Virus record (IMG/VR): IMGVR_UViG_2531839531_000012
DNA length: 31,354 nt
Direction: 5' to 3' (one strand)
From: a virus
Taxonomy: Duplodnaviria > Heunggongvirae > Uroviricota > Caudoviricetes
Made by a program: the position numbers and the translations under genes. The stretch's first letter is position 1, and the number at the start of each line of letters is the position of its first letter. Positions 2,291 through 24,988 of the stretch are shown here, in pieces. Under the pieces are notes generated by a model that saw only the letters and a list, made by a program, of their open reading frames with translations, was not told where the DNA came from and did no database searches.

Positions 2291-3071
2291 ATTTAAACAT
2301 CCTTCCTTGACGTGTGGATAGTTCGTCATAGAGCCATTTAGGAATCGGAACAGTTCTATTCTTCTTACCTTTGGTTTTGGTGAAGGTCAGCTTGTAGGGT
2401 GAGAGTTGAGCGCGTGTAAGCCTCTCGGCTTCTCCCCATCGTGCACCGGTTGCCAAACATACCTTAACAATCATCGTAAGATTTTCTTTGCCATATTGTT
2501 CACAGGCTCGGAACAGCTCCGGGAGCTGAGACAAAGTTAGCCAGGACATTTCTTTCTCAGCTTCTTTGAATACGCGAATCCCGTCCAGTGGATTGGGTAA
2601 ACTCCACTCCCCTAATCGTCGCAGTTCATTGAACACTGCTTCGAGGTATTGCTGCTCGCGATTGACAGTTATAGGTTTGGCGATCCACTTCGCCGGGTCT
2701 TTGTGATAGCCGTTGTCTATTTCGCCACGTAATCGACGGTCACGGTAATGAGCCCAATCTTTAGCGGTAAGACGAGATGCAATAGGGTCGCCCAACCCGT
2801 TACATACGATTTGAAGCTTTGCCAACCGCGACTTACTGGCTACTAACGCCTGACCGTGCAAATTGTGCCAAAGCTGAATAATCTCACTTAAGCGTCGGCG
2901 GTCTTCTTTCTTGCCGAGCCACGGCTTATCTTCACTCTCGCTTTTGGTAAATGCTTCGAATGCCTCGGCCTCACCTTTGGTATTGAATTGACGACGTATA
3001 CGCCGCCCTTCCCGGCCATTTGGATAAAGCTCACATAACCATTTACCATTTTTTTGCTTACTTACTGTCAT
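2291..3071 (-). pseudogene. int: P2/186-type tyrosine integrase, C-terminally truncated by the IS insertion
   Basis: N-terminal 260 aa (MTVSKQKNGKWLCELYPNGREGRRIRRQF...CLATGARWGEAERL...NRTVPIPKWLYDELSTRQGRMFK) has the P2 Int pattern. The segment normally carrying the catalytic H-x-x-R and Tyr is replaced by IS sequence from 2290 leftward. Confidence 0.8.
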
Positions 3072-3094
3072 AGCTACACCGAGGCCAAAAAATA

Positions 3095-3442: not shown

Positions 3443-4306
3443 TTAAACATGCTTTTCCAAGGTAAAGATAACTGCACCTGATGGTGTGATATCAGAGAGA
3501 TTACATTCAAACTCAGCAGACTTATTTGATAGCCTGACCTTTCCACCTGGCATTCTGATTACGTCAAAAATATCGAGCGCACCATCAATGCCAATAAGCC
3601 AACGACCATTTCCTATCTTTGAGTTAGAACAATCAACAAGCCAAGATGCGCCAACTCCATCAATAAAGACCAACTCATCAATGTTTGCAGGAACCATTGA
3701 AAGGTCTGGAGTCCAACGCCCAATATCTTTTAACTCACCAGCTTCAAGACGACATTTTCTTACTGTTAAGGCGTTAAGTGATTCACCCTCTTTGCTGTCT
3801 CGCATTTGGCCTTTTCCTGTAGATAGCCACTCTAACGATACGCCAGTATCGAGTGCGCAGGTCACAACCACATCGCCAGGGAAGAAGTCACGCCTAACCC
3901 AAGTGCTAATAGTACCGGAAGAAATACCTAATAAATCACCAAGCTCTTTTTGCATCGTAAAACCATAAGCATCCAGAATCCTACGCAAAACGGTTTTACC
4001 GCCGTTCGTCATAATCTCGTCATAAAGCTCTTTGCCTTTTAACTTGCAACCGACTCGCCCATGATTTGCATTTGCAAGCTCACCACTTACAAGCCAATTA
4101 ATATCAGCGCCCGTGTCAAGACAACACCTAACTATGATGTTGCCAGGTATTGCATCGCGTTGAACCCAGCCGCTAACGCTATGTTTCGCGATTCCTAGCA
4201 GGTCAGCCAAATCCTTTTGCATCTTGACGCCATAGGCTGACATTAAGCGCTCTAATACGCCATTTGACGCACCTATGCGCCACTGAACATCAAGCTCAGA
4301 ACTCAT
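3443..4306 (-). CDS. CI-like immunity repressor with two tandem 186-CI-type HTH domains and a C-terminal oligomerisation-like domain
   Basis: Two homologous segments (LERLMSAYGVKMQKDLADLLGIAKHSVSGWVQRDAIPG... and LRRILDAYGFTMQKELGDLLGISSGTISTWVRRDFFPG...). Position and orientation are those of the immunity repressor, divergent from the early operon. Confidence 0.7.
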   Translation of the reverse strand: MSSELDVQWRIGASNGVLERLMSAYGVKMQKDLADLLGIAKHSVSGWVQRDAIPGNIIVRCCLDTGADINWLVSGELANANHGRVGCKLKGKELYDEIMTNGGKTVLRRILDAYGFTMQKELGDLLGISSGTISTWVRRDFFPGDVVVTCALDTGVSLEWLSTGKGQMRDSKEGESLNALTVRKCRLEAGELKDIGRWTPDLSMVPANIDELVFIDGVGASWLVDCSNSKIGNGRWLIGIDGALDIFDVIRMPGGKVRLSNKSAEFECNLSDITPSGAVIFTLEKHV

Positions 4307-8626: not shown

Positions 8627-8646
8627 TACTGTATAAATATACAGTA
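8627..8646 (+). promoter_or_regulatory. LexA (SOS) box overlapping a putative promoter
   Basis: TACTGTATAAATATACAGTA matches the CTGT-N8-ACAG consensus at 19 of 20 positions. TTGCCA lies upstream at 8613-8618 and TATAAA/TATACA overlaps the box. Confidence 0.75.
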
Positions 8647-8665: not shown

Positions 8666-8848
8666 ATGGTTGGCGAACATTTCAGCCGAACGCAGCAAAA
8701 GTGGGCTTGTGTGCAATTTATTGCCGAGGTATCTCTGATTGCAAACTGCAAGCCATCAGACTTAAAGCTCGCGCTCACTCTCATTGCAGACCTAGCAAAC
8801 AGCGAAAATAACGAAACCGAAGATGATAATTTTTATAAGGCTGATTAG
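8666..8848 (+). CDS. Small SOS-controlled protein; possible Tum-like antirepressor N-terminal module
   Basis: 60 aa. GGGAGGG RBS 5 nt upstream. 20 bp downstream of the LexA box. Ends at TAG in the same frame as the following DinI-like ORF. Confidence 0.5.
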   Translation: MVGEHFSRTQQKWACVQFIAEVSLIANCKPSDLKLALTLIADLANSENNETEDDNFYKAD

Positions 8849-8851
8849 ATT

Positions 8852-9085
8852 ATGAGAATCAATATCACGTTGGATAAAGAGCAAAAAATTAGTCAGGCAA
8901 CGTTGGATGCACTTGAGGCTGAGCTGTACCGCAATCTTCAACCTATTTACCCAAAGACTGCTATCCGCATTCGTAAGGGCTCAGCTAATGGCGTTGAGTT
9001 AAGCGGTTTGAAACTGGACGAAGATAAAAAACGAGTAATGGAAATCATGCAGCAGGTATGGGAGGACGATAGCTGGCTGCATTAA
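8852..9085 (+). CDS. DinI-family protein
   Basis: 77 aa (MRINITLDKEQKISQATLDALEAELYRNLQ...DEDKKRVMEIMQQVWEDDSWLH), collinear with recalled E. coli DinI (MRIEVT...DALAGEL...EDKQRISEILQETWE...W). Confidence 0.8.
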   Translation: MRINITLDKEQKISQATLDALEAELYRNLQPIYPKTAIRIRKGSANGVELSGLKLDEDKKRVMEIMQQVWEDDSWLH

Positions 9086-9088
9086 CAA

Positions 9089-9165
9089 ACGCCGTCGGTG
9101 CTGAATCTTGCTTTCAGTGCTGGCGGGGTTGAAACTGGCTCCGAGAGGTGTTAGTTCTACCTTTC
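9089..9165. repeat. Copy 1 of a ~75-bp imperfect direct repeat (immediately 3' of the DinI-like gene)
   Basis: AACGCCGTCGGTGCTGAATCTTGCTTTCAGTGCTGGCGGGGTTGAA...GTTAGT aligns with 9492-9568 at roughly 80% identity. Confidence 0.6.
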
Positions 9166-9278
9166 AAACTTTCTCGATGTTTTATTGGTTACACACCGGT
9201 GATTAATGGGACGTTACCTTAGAGGATTTTATAGTGGCGCTTTGACAGCACTGAATAAAATTCATTGAGGGCGATAAT

Positions 9279-9488
9279 ATGCATCGACTACCGGGCGAAA
9301 TTCCGCAGCACAAAACTAAAAGCATAAAACTGATGGCTATCGTTCATCGCTTGCAGACGATAATGGTCAATGAGAACCTGACGCCAGCGGAATTGGTCGG
9401 GTGTGCAGAAATAGTCAGGGATAACTACGATAAGCTGAACGATATCAGCAGGCCGACACAATATGCGCCACCACCATGTCGAAGATAG
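9279..9488 (+). CDS. Hypothetical protein (69 aa) flanked by the direct repeats
   Basis: GAGGG RBS 8 nt upstream. No recognisable motifs. Confidence 0.45.
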   Translation: MHRLPGEIPQHKTKSIKLMAIVHRLQTIMVNENLTPAELVGCAEIVRDNYDKLNDISRPTQYAPPPCRR

Positions 9489-9491
9489 CGA

Positions 9492-9568
9492 ACGCCGTCG
9501 GCGCTGAAACTTGCTTTCGGTACTGGAGGGTTGAACAACGAGTCCCTCTAGGGGTTAGTCTGTTCCGT
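9492..9568. repeat. Copy 2 of the ~75-bp imperfect direct repeat (immediately 3' of the 69-aa ORF)
   Basis: AACGCCGTCGGCGCTGAAACTTGCTTTCGGTACTGGAGGGTTGAA...GTTAGT; see copy 1. Confidence 0.6.
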
Positions 9569-9606: not shown

Positions 9607-9706
9607 CGTATGTCCAATCTAAAGAATGGGGGCTGACATCCCATCATCAGATTTGTGTTATTTTAGTGCTACTCATTCGTCATTAGACATTGTAAGGGCA
9701 ATGTAT

Positions 9707-10417
9707 ATGAAACCAAGCACACACTGCGTTTATTGCGGTGTTCTCATGAATAAGGTTGAAAATCACCCCCACTGCCGCTCAGTTGAACACATGATTCCGC
9801 AAGTTTCAGTCTCCATTCATAGAACCAACGGCGAAGGTGATTTCTATGTATGCAAAAAGTGCAATGGCGATAAAAGCCGAATTGACGAGGTGTTAGGTGT
9901 CATTTGCCGCATGGTAGGAGAGCACTCAACAGGCAGCTTTGATGCTGTTAATAAATTCCATAATGCGCTTAAAAGAAAAGACTCGAAATTTCGTGAAGCA
10001 TTCCAGAGTGTTAGGCATACAAAAAAAGGTGCGCAGATAACATTACCCCTAAATGGTAGGGAGATTTACCAATACGGCACCTGGTTAGCCAAGGGAGTAT
10101 TTTTCTTAGAGTATGGGCAATTGTTGACTGTAGATAAATTAATTTGGATTAATATCGTTCGCCACGATGAAGTAATGGCTATTAAAGAAATGTATAGAAA
10201 TGAACGTGGCTCTGAGGCATTTGATGATTTATCGAAGAATAGCAACATTCCAAATATTAATGGCGAGTCGTTTCTGATTGTTGGCCAGGATGCCCGAGAA
10301 ATGTTTATTTGCTTCAATAGAGTAATGATGTTTCATATAAAGATACTGGATAGAACGTTTATTAATCAAAAAAAATGCAAAAAAGCCCTACTCAATCTGG
10401 AAAAAAGGGTTCGATAA
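9707..10417 (+). CDS. HNH nuclease-domain protein with an uncharacterised ~160-aa C-terminal domain; cargo gene in the A-to-cos variable region
   Basis: 236 aa from the Met with a TAAGGG RBS. N-terminus has C-x2-C (CVYCG), EHMIPQ and CKKCNGDK, an HNH-type arrangement. Distinctly AT-rich. Terminator-like hairpins on both sides. Confidence 0.7.
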   Translation: MKPSTHCVYCGVLMNKVENHPHCRSVEHMIPQVSVSIHRTNGEGDFYVCKKCNGDKSRIDEVLGVICRMVGEHSTGSFDAVNKFHNALKRKDSKFREAFQSVRHTKKGAQITLPLNGREIYQYGTWLAKGVFFLEYGQLLTVDKLIWINIVRHDEVMAIKEMYRNERGSEAFDDLSKNSNIPNINGESFLIVGQDAREMFICFNRVMMFHIKILDRTFINQKKCKKALLNLEKRVR

Positions 10418-10581: not shown

Positions 10582-10807
10582 TGCGCGCCAGCGGTGGTGC
10601 GTATTATTAAAAAATACCGTCTGAGTGCGTTGTGGTGGAGCTAACGAGAGCGTTGCTAGATCGTGGGAGTTCTGATGCGAACGTGGGGCTATGTTTTGTC
10701 TGTGGAGCGATGAGAGAGGGTGAGATCAGTCGCACAATTCTACGGCTGTGCTTCCGTTAATATCTTCATCGGTATGTCATGTTCCCTACCAACAGCTGGA
10801 GGCTTTA

Positions 10808-11032
10808 ATGGATAACTATCACATTACAAAAGATGGCGATAAGTGGAAGCTTCAAAAGGAAGGAAATGAGCGGCCTAGCAAGACTGCAACAACTAAGGCT
10901 GAGATCATCAAAGATACTCAAGATTACATGTCCAATAAGACTGGCTCAGTAAAAATTCACAAAGAGGATGGGAAGTTTCAGGAAGAGCGCACTTACCCTC
11001 GTAAAGCTGATCCTAAAAAGTCCAAAGGTTAA
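10808..11032 (+). CDS. Small DUF2188-like protein; cargo gene between cos and the portal gene
   Basis: 74 aa from the internal Met (MDNYHITKDGDKWKLQKEGNERPSKT...KIHKEDGKFQEERTYPRK). GGAGG RBS. AT-rich. Confidence 0.55.
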   Translation: MDNYHITKDGDKWKLQKEGNERPSKTATTKAEIIKDTQDYMSNKTGSVKIHKEDGKFQEERTYPRKADPKKSKG

Positions 11033-13885: not shown

Positions 13886-14050
13886 TGATGCCTCGCCGTA
13901 GTGGATTCAGGGCAAGGCTACTTAATGGCCGTCAGTGATTCGCTAAGGTGCTGTTGTGTGGGCGATTGTCCAGCCGTCGTTAGTGGTCTGGCGTGCCCTG
14001 AGTCTGGAAACTGGCGTTGACCAGTAACCCTAACCTCAGGACTCCTGACA

Positions 14051-14905
14051 ATGGCAAAAAAAGTCTCAAAATTCTTTCGTATCGGCGTCGAGGGTGATAC
14101 CTGCGACGGGCGCATTATCAGCGCCAGTGATATTCAGGAAATGGCCGACACGTTTGACCCGCGCGTCTACGGTTGCCGCATCAATCTTGAGCATATTCGC
14201 GGTCTTTTCCCTGACGGCGACTTTAAGCGCCTGGGTGATGTGGTTGAGCTGAAAGCCGAGAAGATTGATGACGACTCTGCGCTTAACGGCAAATGGGCGT
14301 TGTTCGCTAAAATCACCCCGACCGATGACCTGATTGCAATGAATAAAAAATTGCAGAAGGTCTACACCTCAATGGAAATTCAGCCGAATTTTGCCAATAC
14401 CGGCAAATGCTATCTCGTTGGTCTGGCTGTGACCGATGACCCGGCAAGCCTCGGCACCGAATACCTCGAATTCTGTCGCAATGCAAAAAACAACCCGCTT
14501 AACCGCTTTAAGGCTAACCCTGAAAACCTGATTTCAGCGGCAACGCTTGCGGAGCTTGAGTTTGAAGACCAGCCGGAAACGGTATTTACCGCCCTGGCCG
14601 ATAAGGTGAAAGCCATTTTCAGCCGTAAGCAGGTCAGCGACGATGCGCGCCTGAATGATGTGCATGAAGCGGTGACCACCGTCAGCGAACATGTGCAAAC
14701 CAACCTGACAAAACAGGACGAGCGCCTTTCCGCTATGGAAACCGCGTTTGCCACTTTCAAACAGGAACTGACCGGCAAGGTTGAAGAAACCAGCCAGGCA
14801 TTTTCCGACCTGAAAACCACCCTCGATAAAACCGAAAGTTTCAGCCAGCCGCGACGCACGAAAGCCAGCGGCGGTGGTGGCGATGAGCTGCTGACCGACT
14901 GCTGA
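14051..14905 (+). CDS. O: Capsid scaffolding protein gpO
   Basis: 284 aa (the P2 O length). N-terminus MAKKVSKFFRIGVEGDTCDGR. Confidence 0.85.
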   Translation: MAKKVSKFFRIGVEGDTCDGRIISASDIQEMADTFDPRVYGCRINLEHIRGLFPDGDFKRLGDVVELKAEKIDDDSALNGKWALFAKITPTDDLIAMNKKLQKVYTSMEIQPNFANTGKCYLVGLAVTDDPASLGTEYLEFCRNAKNNPLNRFKANPENLISAATLAELEFEDQPETVFTALADKVKAIFSRKQVSDDARLNDVHEAVTTVSEHVQTNLTKQDERLSAMETAFATFKQELTGKVEETSQAFSDLKTTLDKTESFSQPRRTKASGGGGDELLTDC

Positions 14906-17405: not shown

Positions 17406-17608
17406 TGAAAGTCTACGCGATTCAGGGCGACACCCTCGACGCGCTTTGCGCCCGGTATTACGGGCGCACTGAGGGCGTGGTCGAGACGGTGCTGCAGGCT
17501 AATCCCGGTCTGTCTGAGCTGGGCGTCATTCTGCCGCATGGCACGGCGATTGACCTGCCCGACGTGGCATCGTCACCCGTAACAGAAACTATCAACCTTT
17601 GGGAGTAA
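17405..17608 (+). CDS. X: Tail protein gpX
   Basis: 67 aa (MKVYAIQGDTLDALCARYYG...). Start overlaps the L stop (TGATG). Confidence 0.8.
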   Translation: MKVYAIQGDTLDALCARYYGRTEGVVETVLQANPGLSELGVILPHGTAIDLPDVASSPVTETINLWE

Positions 17609-17611
17609 ACC

Positions 17612-17908
17612 ATGACAGAAGGGGAAAAAGGCGTCCTGTCACTGTTTGTGATTGGCGTGATGATTGTTGTCGGAAAAGTGCTGGCGGGTGGTGAGCCCAT
17701 TACCCCGCGCCTGTTTATCGGCCGCATGCTGCTCGGCGGTTTTGTTTCAATGGTCGCCGGTGTTGTTCTGGTGCAGTTTCCAGATATGTCACTGCCTGCC
17801 GTTTGCGGGATTGGATCCATGCTCGGCATTGCAGGTTATCAGGTGGTGGAAATCGCCATTCAGCGCCGCTTTAAGTCACAACAGGGGGATAGCGATGCCG
17901 GTCATTAA
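17612..17908 (+). CDS. Y: Holin gpY
   Basis: 98 aa with hydrophobic transmembrane segments and a charged C-terminus. First gene of the lysis cassette. Confidence 0.8.
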   Translation: MTEGEKGVLSLFVIGVMIVVGKVLAGGEPITPRLFIGRMLLGGFVSMVAGVVLVQFPDMSLPAVCGIGSMLGIAGYQVVEIAIQRRFKSQQGDSDAGH

Positions 17909-19819: not shown

Positions 19820-19838
19820 TTACTATGTGAGTCATTAC

Positions 19839-19866
19839 AGGAACTGTCAGAGTTGGTGCAGTTCCT
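19839..19866. other. Inverted-repeat hairpin at the boundary of the S-V insertion
   Basis: AGGAACTG-12 nt-CAGTTCCT: 8-bp stem. Lies between the S stop and the stop of the minus-strand cargo gene. Confidence 0.35.
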
Positions 19867-19893
19867 ATATTTAGGTATTAAGTTTGTTTTAGA

Positions 19894-20679
19894 TTATAAA
19901 GTTAAGTTTATCCCCAGCTCTTTTTTTGCAATATCTAATACATATTCGGAATTACTCCAAGAACCATTGGTGTCTCCACAACACTCAGGGCTCAGGCATA
20001 TGGTCAAGCAGGCTATTTTATTCTTATCAATGCCCGCCCTTACTGTTTTAAATAACTCCTTAATGAACGCGTCATCAATAAATTTAAGATAATGTTCACC
20101 TGTGAAGAAGTAGTCAAGATCAATATTGATGATGATTTTTTCATGGTTATCAATGGCGCTATCTAAATTCTCAAGAAGCTCATAAGGCTCAATGTCTCTG
20201 AAGCAATGATTAAAAGGATTCTGCGGGTATGTGCCATCATTGTGTGTTGCTAGATAAATACACTCAATATGGTTTTGAAGTGCATCATCTGAAATAAAAA
20301 AGGATAGATAATTATCCCACCGTATCAGTGGTGTTTTATTACCACCGACTGTTACCTCTAGACTTAAGTAGTCTAGATAGGATTTTAAATTGAACACCCC
20401 CGGAAATTTACTTATATAGGGTTCGTATAGGTTGAGAGTATCATAATGCCTATCAATATGAAATAATGCGATATTTTTATCAGGCTGTAAGTGTTGCATC
20501 CAGCACCATAGTGCGATTCTATGATTGTCACTAATGTATATATTACCATCCTGAGCAAGGAAGTTTAAATTATATGCCAATGATGGGCCTTTTTGGGTTG
20601 GCGGAATTAACAACTTCATAAGAACTCCATATAAAATATGTTTTCCCAGCAATGCTAACGCAAGAGCAATGCTTTTCAT
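19894..20679 (-). CDS. AT-rich cargo gene of unknown function between S and V, on the opposite strand to the late operon; possible metal-dependent hydrolase
   Basis: 261 aa (alternative start at 20619 with GGAG RBS). Motifs FHIDRHYD and INIDLDYFF. Strong compositional contrast with the flanking late genes. Confidence 0.65.
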   Translation of the reverse strand: MKSIALALALLGKHILYGVLMKLLIPPTQKGPSLAYNLNFLAQDGNIYISDNHRIALWCWMQHLQPDKNIALFHIDRHYDTLNLYEPYISKFPGVFNLKSYLDYLSLEVTVGGNKTPLIRWDNYLSFFISDDALQNHIECIYLATHNDGTYPQNPFNHCFRDIEPYELLENLDSAIDNHEKIIINIDLDYFFTGEHYLKFIDDAFIKELFKTVRAGIDKNKIACLTICLSPECCGDTNGSWSNSEYVLDIAKKELGINLTL

Positions 20680-20749
20680 AGCGTTGTGCCATCCCTGAAA
20701 GAAAATATCTGATTAGCAAATATTCCACCCAAAATTCAAAATAGTCCCT

Positions 20750-21391
20750 ATGAACACTCTGAACAGCATACAAGAATTAGCGCGCGCGATTCGCAACCTC
20801 ATCCGCTCAGGTGTGGTGACTGAGGTCGATATCGTGCAGGGGCTGTGCCGCGTACAAAGCGGTGGGATCCAGACTACATGGCTGAACTGGCTGACTACCC
20901 GAGCTGGACGCTCGCGCACATGGTGGGCTCCCTCGGTCGGTGAGCAGGTGCTGCTGCTGGCAATTGGTGGCGAGCTTGATACTGCTTTCGTGCTGCCGGG
21001 GATTTTCTCCGACGATAACCCCGCCCCATCTGCCTCGGCGGATGCATGGCATGTGGTTTTCCCTGATGGTGCGGTCATTGAGTACGAGCCCAAGACCAGC
21101 GCGCTGACGGTCAGCGGCATCAAGACTGCTGATGTGACGGCATCGCGATCCATCACGGCTACCGTGCCGTTGGTACTTGTGAAAGCAGAAACCCGCATAA
21201 CCCTCGATACCCCGGAGGTGGTTTGTACCAACAAGCTGACGACAGCAACGCTTGAGGTACAAAAGGGCGGCAAGATGAAAGGCAACATCGAACATTCCGG
21301 CGGGAAATTAACCTCTAACGGTGTGCAGGTTGATGACCATGACCACGGCAATGTGCAGAGCGGTGGAAGTTGGACTAAGGGGGTTAAATGA
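20750..21391 (+). CDS. V: Baseplate spike/assembly protein gpV
   Basis: 213 aa. P2 V-like. Confidence 0.85.
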   Translation: MNTLNSIQELARAIRNLIRSGVVTEVDIVQGLCRVQSGGIQTTWLNWLTTRAGRSRTWWAPSVGEQVLLLAIGGELDTAFVLPGIFSDDNPAPSASADAWHVVFPDGAVIEYEPKTSALTVSGIKTADVTASRSITATVPLVLVKAETRITLDTPEVVCTNKLTTATLEVQKGGKMKGNIEHSGGKLTSNGVQVDDHDHGNVQSGGSWTKGVK

Positions 21392-24886: not shown

Positions 24887-24988
24887 ATGATTTGTTTATG
24901 TGCCATCAGCCACCCATCGCCGACAAATAGCCCATCACCAGACCAGCCAGGACAATAACACTCGCCCACTAACCACGGAGTTAACCGG

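Follow-up and report, generated by a model that had tools for sequence, protein, structure and literature searches.

Activation of the late operons by regulators of the Ogr/B type is a textbook feature of phages P2 and 186 and is among the phage regulatory circuits that have been characterised best. Cross-activating relatives within the same activator family, with the same kind of upstream element, are P4 delta (Psid, PLL) and PSP3 Pag. In P2 the late promoters PP, PO, PV and PF are activated by Ogr, and in 186 the promoters p12/pV, p32 and pJ are activated by B. Activation in this family depends on the alpha subunit of RNA polymerase, and late transcription of P2 is blocked in hosts with certain rpoA mutations in the alpha-CTD. 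The complete GenBank annotations of both phages (P2, AF063097; 186, U32222) mark the late-activator sites together with several transcription starts and were used as our references. Activator sites are annotated in P2 at 3057-3087, 10239-10266 and 17555-17583 with transcription starts at 3016, 3127, 10308 and 17626-17628, and in 186 the B sites are found at 3798-3817 and 14091-14110 and the pJ start at 14159. The consensus given for PP, PO, PV and PF in the published literature is TGT-N12-ACA (as cited in PMC3931495).

The DNA analysed here, a whole stretch of 31,354 nt referred to as the window, was found by its ORF map and by megablast against phage genomes to be the late region of a 186-like (Eganvirus) prophage of the P2 family. 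Its closest relatives are coliphage 186, PSP3 and other Eganvirus phages, with 88-92% identity in S and V (megablast). The gene order runs from replication gene A through an accessory region to Q-P, which is transcribed leftward, and continues with O...S, V...G and FI...D, where D is cut by the window end. Rfam and tRNA scans of the whole window gave no matches.

Three sites in the window, starting at 13955, 20685 and 24899, are very probably the upstream sites through which the four late promoters are activated, one of them common to P and O and the other two belonging to V and to FI, respectively (Table 1). The original prediction had read these elements as late-activator sites, and our analysis supports this reading because the sites align with the annotated sites of P2 and 186 and because conserved footprints and a cross-validated weight matrix are in agreement. 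The alignment with the characterised P2 and 186 late promoters was run as a refutation test; a conserved element was present and the reading was not refuted. The expectation of four late promoter regions held in that all four are covered, but this is achieved with only three sites, the one at 13955 serving P as well as O. According to the ORF map and the homology to P2 and 186, sites are located upstream of all four late operons (P-Q, O..S, V..G and FI..D).

Table 1. Predicted late-promoter elements and neighbouring features of the window
Feature	Position	Strand	Details
Candidate fifth late-type promoter (weak evidence)	9178..9243	+	TGTTTTATTGGTTACACA, a perfect TGT-N12-ACA
PP-type promoter, using the shared site	13908..13952	-	TTAGC 13946-13942; predicted start ~13908, 23 nt before P ATG (13885)
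Activator site shared by P (leftward) and O (rightward)	13953..13972		GTTGTGTGGGCGATTGTCCA; TGT 13955, CCA 13970
Rest of PO-type promoter	13973..14019	+	GTGGT 13983-13987 (TGT+28); GAAACT 14007-14012 (TGT+52); predicted start ~14019
Putative decayed 186-type p32 promoter	19820..19885	+	Directly after S stop codon
S-V cargo gene, 241 aa, UPF0489 (FlmR_OhkR_N), predicted arginase fold	19894..20619	-	Divergent from V
V-proximal activator site	20684..20702	+	GTTGTGCCATCCCTGAAAGA; TGT 65 nt before V ATG
Rest of PV-type promoter	20703..20751	+	TTAGC 20713-20717 (TGT+28); AAAATA 20738-20743 (TGT+53); predicted start 20749-20751
FI-proximal activator site	24897..24916	+	TATGTGCCATCAGCCACCCA; orthologue by position of the 186 pJ B site (14091-14110) and P2 pF site (17555-17583)
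Rest of PF/pJ-type promoter	24917..24965	+	ATAGC 24927-24931 (TGT+28); ACAATA 24952-24957; predicted start 24965, 24 nt before FI ATG

The spacing between the TGT and the downstream start codon was observed to be closely preserved. The TGT precedes the V ATG by 65 nt in the window, in P2 (10243 to 10308) and in 186 (9664 to 9729). The corresponding distance to the FI ATG is 90 nt in the window, 91 nt in P2 and 90 nt in 186, and that to the O ATG (14051 in the window) is 96, 104 and 96 nt respectively, so that the window shares with 186 both the gene order and all three distances (96, 65 and 90 nt). On the other strand, the P ATG lies 87 nt from the shared P/O site. When the promoters are anchored on the TGT, a second, (A/T)TAGC-like element is always found at TGT+28. 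It reads ATAGC in P2 PV, P2 PF, 186 pJ and the PF of the window, TTAGC in the PV of the window, ATGGC in P2 PO, and GTGGT in 186 pV and the PO of the window. A -10-like hexamer, which is GAAACT, AAAATA or ACAATA, follows at TGT+52 to TGT+54. The annotated starts are located 55.5 nt from the site centre for P2 pO and pP, 56.5 nt for P2 pV, and 57.5 nt for P2 pF and 186 pJ, and the four starts of the window are predicted near the positions listed in Table 1.

As in P2, the divergent P and O promoters of the window are served by a single site, the ATAGC/ATGGC element stands at TGT+28, and a cargo gene (orf30 in P2) lies between S and V and diverges from V. PV is AT-rich in both, with its start annotated at the V ATG in P2, and the site centres of the window are predicted to fall at about -55 to -58 as they do in P2. 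The variable-core sequences of the sites differ, and P2 PV has ACA at N11 whereas the V site of the window has no ACA. The 3' halves of the window sites are CCA, CCA and AGA, which match the ACA of the literature poorly, and the 3' half of the V site is weak. The annotated sites of 186 (CCA, CCA) and P2 (CCA, CCA) were found to be equally degenerate. The PV, PF and PO promoters have no sigma-70 -35 hexamer and only a weak -10 (AAAATA, ACAATA or GAAACT). No sigma-70-type promoter was found by a consensus scan of the + strand at 20680-20750, nor in the PO and PF regions, which were inspected by eye only. A CRP-type site (TGTGA-N6-TCACA) was also considered and rejected as its second half is missing, which was likewise judged by eye only.

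By position and sequence, two of the three sites are orthologous to experimentally annotated sites of 186. The P/O site matches 19 of the 20 nucleotides of the 186 feature labelled 'B protein; activation of pV and p12 promoters' (U32222 3798-3817) and is identical in seven IMG/VR relatives; the P/O intergenic region as a whole is almost invariant among the 186-like relatives. The elements of the PO-type promoter stand at the offsets of P2 pO, whose annotated start is 3127. The geometry of the PP-type promoter mirrors that of P2 pP, which has its annotated start at 3016 and a 23-nt leader, and the start in the window was placed by this homology. The FI region of the window is near-identical to 186 pJ down to the ATG, and the pJ start (14159) lies 24 nt before the J ATG.

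The V-proximal site appears to be a new sequence variant of the known PV/p32 site which is carried on a cargo module. Its promoter elements have the offsets of P2 pV and pF, although the downstream part bears only a loose resemblance to P2 pV. Over its first 14 nt, V is identical to its P2 counterpart and not to that of 186. In the P2 annotation the V operon starts at the first base of the V coding sequence (10308), and we found no Shine-Dalgarno sequence before V in the window, in P2 (10308) or in 186 (9729). The start predicted for the window likewise falls on the first base of the V ATG, so the V mRNA is probably leaderless. A leaderless V mRNA would account for the constant spacing of 64-65 nt between TGT and ATG in the relatives. 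The AGA that was taken as the 3' half of the V site seems to be an arbitrary register because V-type sites conserve an A at +7, +14, +16 and +18/+19 rather than a triplet after N12.

Conservation was examined in 80 IMG/VR loci each for V, FI and O, with about 130 distinct relatives compared overall; these relatives share descent, so ancestry accounts for part of the footprint conservation reported here. Of 67 distinct V-upstream sequences, 65 have a TTGT that precedes the V ATG by 64-65 nt, and it carries 1.2-1.9 bits per column compared with less than 0.9 bits in the flanks (next 25 columns). The TGT lies inside the expected span of 4-5 nt in all 55 distinct V sites and in every F locus except one. 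The consensus of 50 distinct F sites is TGTgCCATCC-N5-CCAnC. The gap between S and V was observed to be bimodal, with 66-69 bp in 32 loci and 812-2324 bp in 34 loci, and this interval is a cargo hotspot. The distance from the TGT to V remains constant with or without cargo between S and V while the flanks vary, and sequence divergence begins immediately upstream of GTTGT, which makes the activator site the fixed right-hand boundary of the hotspot. In the cargo-free relatives (IMG/VR V loci L006-L027; 9676-9700 in 186, locus L004) we noticed a strong GC-rich hairpin, GGAGCCGCGC-GAATTG-GCGCGGCTCC, in the p32-type promoter between the activator site and the -10 region, which looks like a terminator of the upstream operon placed inside the next promoter.

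We trained a weight matrix on F and V sites of the relatives only, excluding the window, P2 and 186, and searched both strands of whole genomes with it. In P2 the best three matches are exactly the three annotated activator sites (17561, 3063 and 10243), and in 186 they are pJ, p32 and pV/p12 (14093, 9664 and 3800). In the window the 66-nt matrix ranks the sites at 24899 (51.5 bits), 13955 (21.8 bits) and 20685 (20.0 bits) first to third, followed by a next match of 12.1 bits; shuffled sequences reached maxima of 0.1 bits on average and 14.6 bits at the highest. No O/P site is part of the training set and the recovery of these sites in three genomes is therefore an independent check. Matrices trained on a single promoter class also place the other classes near the top, and the V-trained matrix ranks the V-proximal site first. 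This simple F and V matrix finds all the late promoters of P2, of 186 and of this phage and is thus useful for the annotation of prophages.

The gene between S and V encodes a UPF0489 protein which has, according to its AlphaFold2 model (pLDDT 93), an arginase (ureohydrolase) fold. It matches PF12640 above the cut-off (E = 5.6e-8) and has 497 homologues, mostly of 239-245 aa, with invariant residues that include H33, H54, D56, H58, D60, D167 and D169 in His/Asp clusters of the metal-ligand type. Among solved structures the closest folds are those of agmatinase, arginase and the peptide arginase OspR, matched with a probability of 1.0 but a TM-score of only 0.43-0.51. No match was obtained with the PADLOC defence models or NCBIfam. 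The cargo was rejected as a homologue of P2 orf30 (BLASTP E = 0.29, no meaningful alignment), and the two proteins are unrelated even though the longest cargo ORF (ATG 20679) also has 261 aa. A start at 20679, only 5 nt from the site, was rejected as well, given the length of the homologues and the lack of conservation of this ATG, whereas the ATG at 20619 and its GGAG are conserved in the spacer alignment of Citrobacter and Enterobacter. The cargo had been described as directly beside the V-proximal site; it is indeed the adjoining gene but, as the conserved ATG and GGAG place its start at 20619, it begins 66 nt away and not 5 nt.

The same cargo occurs in the same place and orientation in P2-like prophages of Citrobacter and Enterobacter, and in Morganella a homologue is located in an IS/T6SS-effector island. 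The GC content of the cargo and of the 130-bp spacer between cargo and V is 36% compared with 56% in S and V. Footprints that survive in the diverged Citrobacter and Enterobacter spacers are GTTGTGC, which is invariant, TGA, TTAG, TTCAnAATAGT and the V ATG. In this lineage the V promoter appears to move together with the cargo.

The position of the V-proximal site raises the question of whether it acts in both directions, as the P/O site does, and also turns on the divergent cargo gene late in infection. The V ATG is 65 nt and the cargo ATG 66 nt away, so that the site is nearly midway between the two genes, and the cargo side carries GAAAACAT in the window and GAAAATAT in Enterobacter. This conserved GAAAA(C/T)AT on the cargo strand resembles a late -10 element, in particular the GAAAATA of PF, and neither a consensus scan nor manual inspection revealed a convincing sigma-70 promoter for the cargo. 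The geometry argues against such a use, since the -10-like element is about 4 nt too distant from the site; the predicted start would lie 60-62 nt from the site centre compared with 55.5-58.5 nt in all the annotated cases, and the TTAGC-like element of the cargo strand is found 44 nt from the site edge and not 28 nt. Furthermore, such an arrangement is not a general one, since only 19 nt separate the orf30 start of P2 from the TGT, and cargo of this type is usually expressed by the prophage. Bidirectional use is therefore unlikely.

A second stretch that could be assigned to the V operon was observed directly after S. Residues 19820-19885 align along their whole length with the S-V intergenic region of 186, in which p32 abuts the stop codon of the S homologue and contains a GC-rich hairpin, and they form the second-best match of the V-trained matrix. 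This stretch might then be the functional V promoter, leaving the element at 20685 as a chance match or as a regulatory site of the cargo, and its TATGTG form is also present at the FI site. However, the TTGTGTG of 186 is TATGTG here (19824-19829), with the key TGT, invariant in the relatives, changed to TAT. In addition, the hairpin at 19839-19866 and the T-rich ATATTT that follows resemble a terminator, and a transcript from this position would have to cross the cargo in antisense for about 900 nt. The element at 20685 scores higher, stands at the conserved distance from V and is kept across diverged modules, which leaves a promoter function next to S very improbable. The stretch instead reads as a decayed ancestral promoter which is now at most a terminator of the O operon. 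Its presence after S suggests that the cargo arrived together with a P2-type PV promoter, by insertion or recombination, on the downstream side of the old one. In this respect the window would differ from 186, as its predicted V promoter is AT-rich and located on the far side of the 726-bp cargo gene.

The element was originally recognised as a 9-mer, TGTGCCATC, repeated at 20685-20693 and 24899-24907, that is 65 nt before the V ATG (20750) and 90 nt before the FI ATG (24989); these coordinates are exact. The two places listed are both correct, but another + strand copy at 20230-20238 was overlooked. The three copies in the window compare with 0.37 expected, and three were reached in only 1 of 100 shuffles. 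The additional copy is part of the cargo ORF; read as its complement, it codes for the D-G-T of a conserved H-N-D-G-T-Y-P motif, and the Enterobacter homologue reads TGTGCCGTC at the same position through synonymous variation. For these reasons the copy seems to be a by-product of coding, and it was rejected as a further activator site, its matrix score also being low. As judged from the relatives, TGTGCCATC is the consensus 5' half-site of the family (TGT g CCATCC), since 11 of the 50 distinct F sites read exactly TGTGCCATC and 19 of the 50 read TGTGCCA.

The looser pattern TGT-N12-(CCA/AGA) is also correct for the three sites to which it was applied: TGT-GCCATCCCTGAA-AGA (20685-20702), TGT-GCCATCAGCCAC-CCA (24899-24916) and TGT-GTGGGCGATTGT-CCA (13955-13972). 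No enrichment was found in the window, where 18 matches on both strands compare with 25.4 +/- 4.9 expected, and TGT-N12-ACA likewise occurs at the chance level. Enrichment was rejected as evidence because TGT-N12-CCA, -AGA and -ACA are all at or below chance, and counts of such a loose pattern prove nothing alone. The three sites owe their significance to homologous positions and to their conservation in the comparisons rather than to how often the pattern occurs. That the repeated 9-mer is a coincidence with no common function, as the coding origin of the 20230 copy and the chance-level pattern counts might suggest, is effectively refuted by the comparative data, as the other two copies stand where P2 and 186 have annotated activator sites, fit the family consensus and take top ranks with an independently trained matrix.

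The activator itself was expected to be encoded downstream of D, outside the window, and this fits a sibling prophage in E. coli A38, the only one of 5,426 complete E. coli genomes with this S-cargo-V module. The PV, PF and S-proximal regions of the A38 prophage are identical to those of the window. The gene that immediately follows D there codes for a C4 zinc-finger protein of 72 aa (WP_000972010.1), a member of the Ogr/B family with 71% identity to 186 B and 64% identity to P2 Ogr. Its cysteines C4, C7, C30 and C35 are conserved.

The sequences show the sites with their positions and conservation, and an activator gene in a sibling prophage; binding, activation and transcription start points are our inference by homology, and the proposed switch would work as follows. 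Late in lytic growth a small C4 zinc-finger activator of the Ogr/B/Pag family, with its gene just downstream of D and beyond the window, would bind a partly symmetric element, beginning with TTGT, whose centre is about 55-58 bp upstream of the point where transcription starts. Once bound, it would bring the RNA polymerase of the host to promoters whose -10 is weak and which lack a sigma-70 -35 hexamer, where the conserved (A/T)TAGC-like element at TGT+28 may take the place of the latter. The V-proximal site would be part of an AT-rich, P2-pV-like promoter that moves with the S-V cargo as one module, and transcription of V would begin at or beside its ATG, with the older 186-type promoter copy presumably left to decay next to S. 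Activator sites being a textbook feature of P2/186-family phages, the finding is real but of an already known kind, correct and ordinary; it provides a correct regulatory annotation of a P2/186-family prophage and no new biology.

The matrix also raises a testable candidate for a fifth activator-type promoter beside the defence hotspot between A and Q. The element at 9178-9195 is followed by ATGGG at TGT+28 and TATAGT at 9230-9235 (TGT+52), and it is located upstream of a 69-aa ORF similar to PSP3 gp37 (9279-9488) in the tumA-tumB (SOS) accessory region. This tumA-tumB-orf37 region, including the 9178 element, is common to PSP3 and the window. The candidate was ranked second by the F-trained matrix (13.4 bits) and third by a 40-nt F and V matrix (12.3 bits), scores which lie within the shuffle maxima (14.4 and 17.5 bits, respectively), and it drops out with the 66-nt matrix. 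The element is kept in PSP3 and in some 25 relatives, and GGT replaces TGT in one divergent relative; as the former are all 85-95% identical overall, they are too similar for the comparison to be informative. A functional promoter at this position is possible but doubtful. An extension of the late regulon to accessory genes, through this fifth promoter together with a V-proximal site acting both ways, is likewise possible but doubtful. If true, transcription of the PSP3-orf37-like gene would start from the 9178 promoter, which might also serve the PtuB-like HNH gene of the A-Q defence hotspot, and accessory or defence genes would be induced by the lytic programme of the phage itself or by an incoming P2/P4-type element with a cross-reacting activator.

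Several other features were observed in the accessory region. A LexA box, TACTGTATAAATATACAGTA, is found at 8627-8646 before a tumA-like ORF (60 aa) and a tumB-like ORF of the DinI family (77 aa) at 8666-9085 (+). These correspond to the SOS-inducible antirepressor operon of the 186/PSP3 type, and the region is 92% identical to PSP3. A 45-nt direct repeat (9083-9127 and 9486-9530, +, 84% identity) starts at the stop codons of two successive small genes and has no match in Rfam. The copy at 9083-9127 folds into a long hairpin (-36 kcal/mol, z = -5.2), and the copy at 9486-9530 folds no better than shuffled sequences (z about 0); the repeat may be a partial terminator or attenuator like t95a of 186. 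Further along the A-Q hotspot, 9626-10417 (+) encodes a 263-aa accessory protein with weak matches to PtuB, the HNH component of Septu (best E = 7.6e-5), and a full-length match to phrog_31193 from residue 28, and with no match in Pfam or NCBIfam. A DUF2188 protein encoded in the same hotspot at 10748-11032 (+) was found to match the PADLOC candidate PDC-S16 (E = 1.4e-13).
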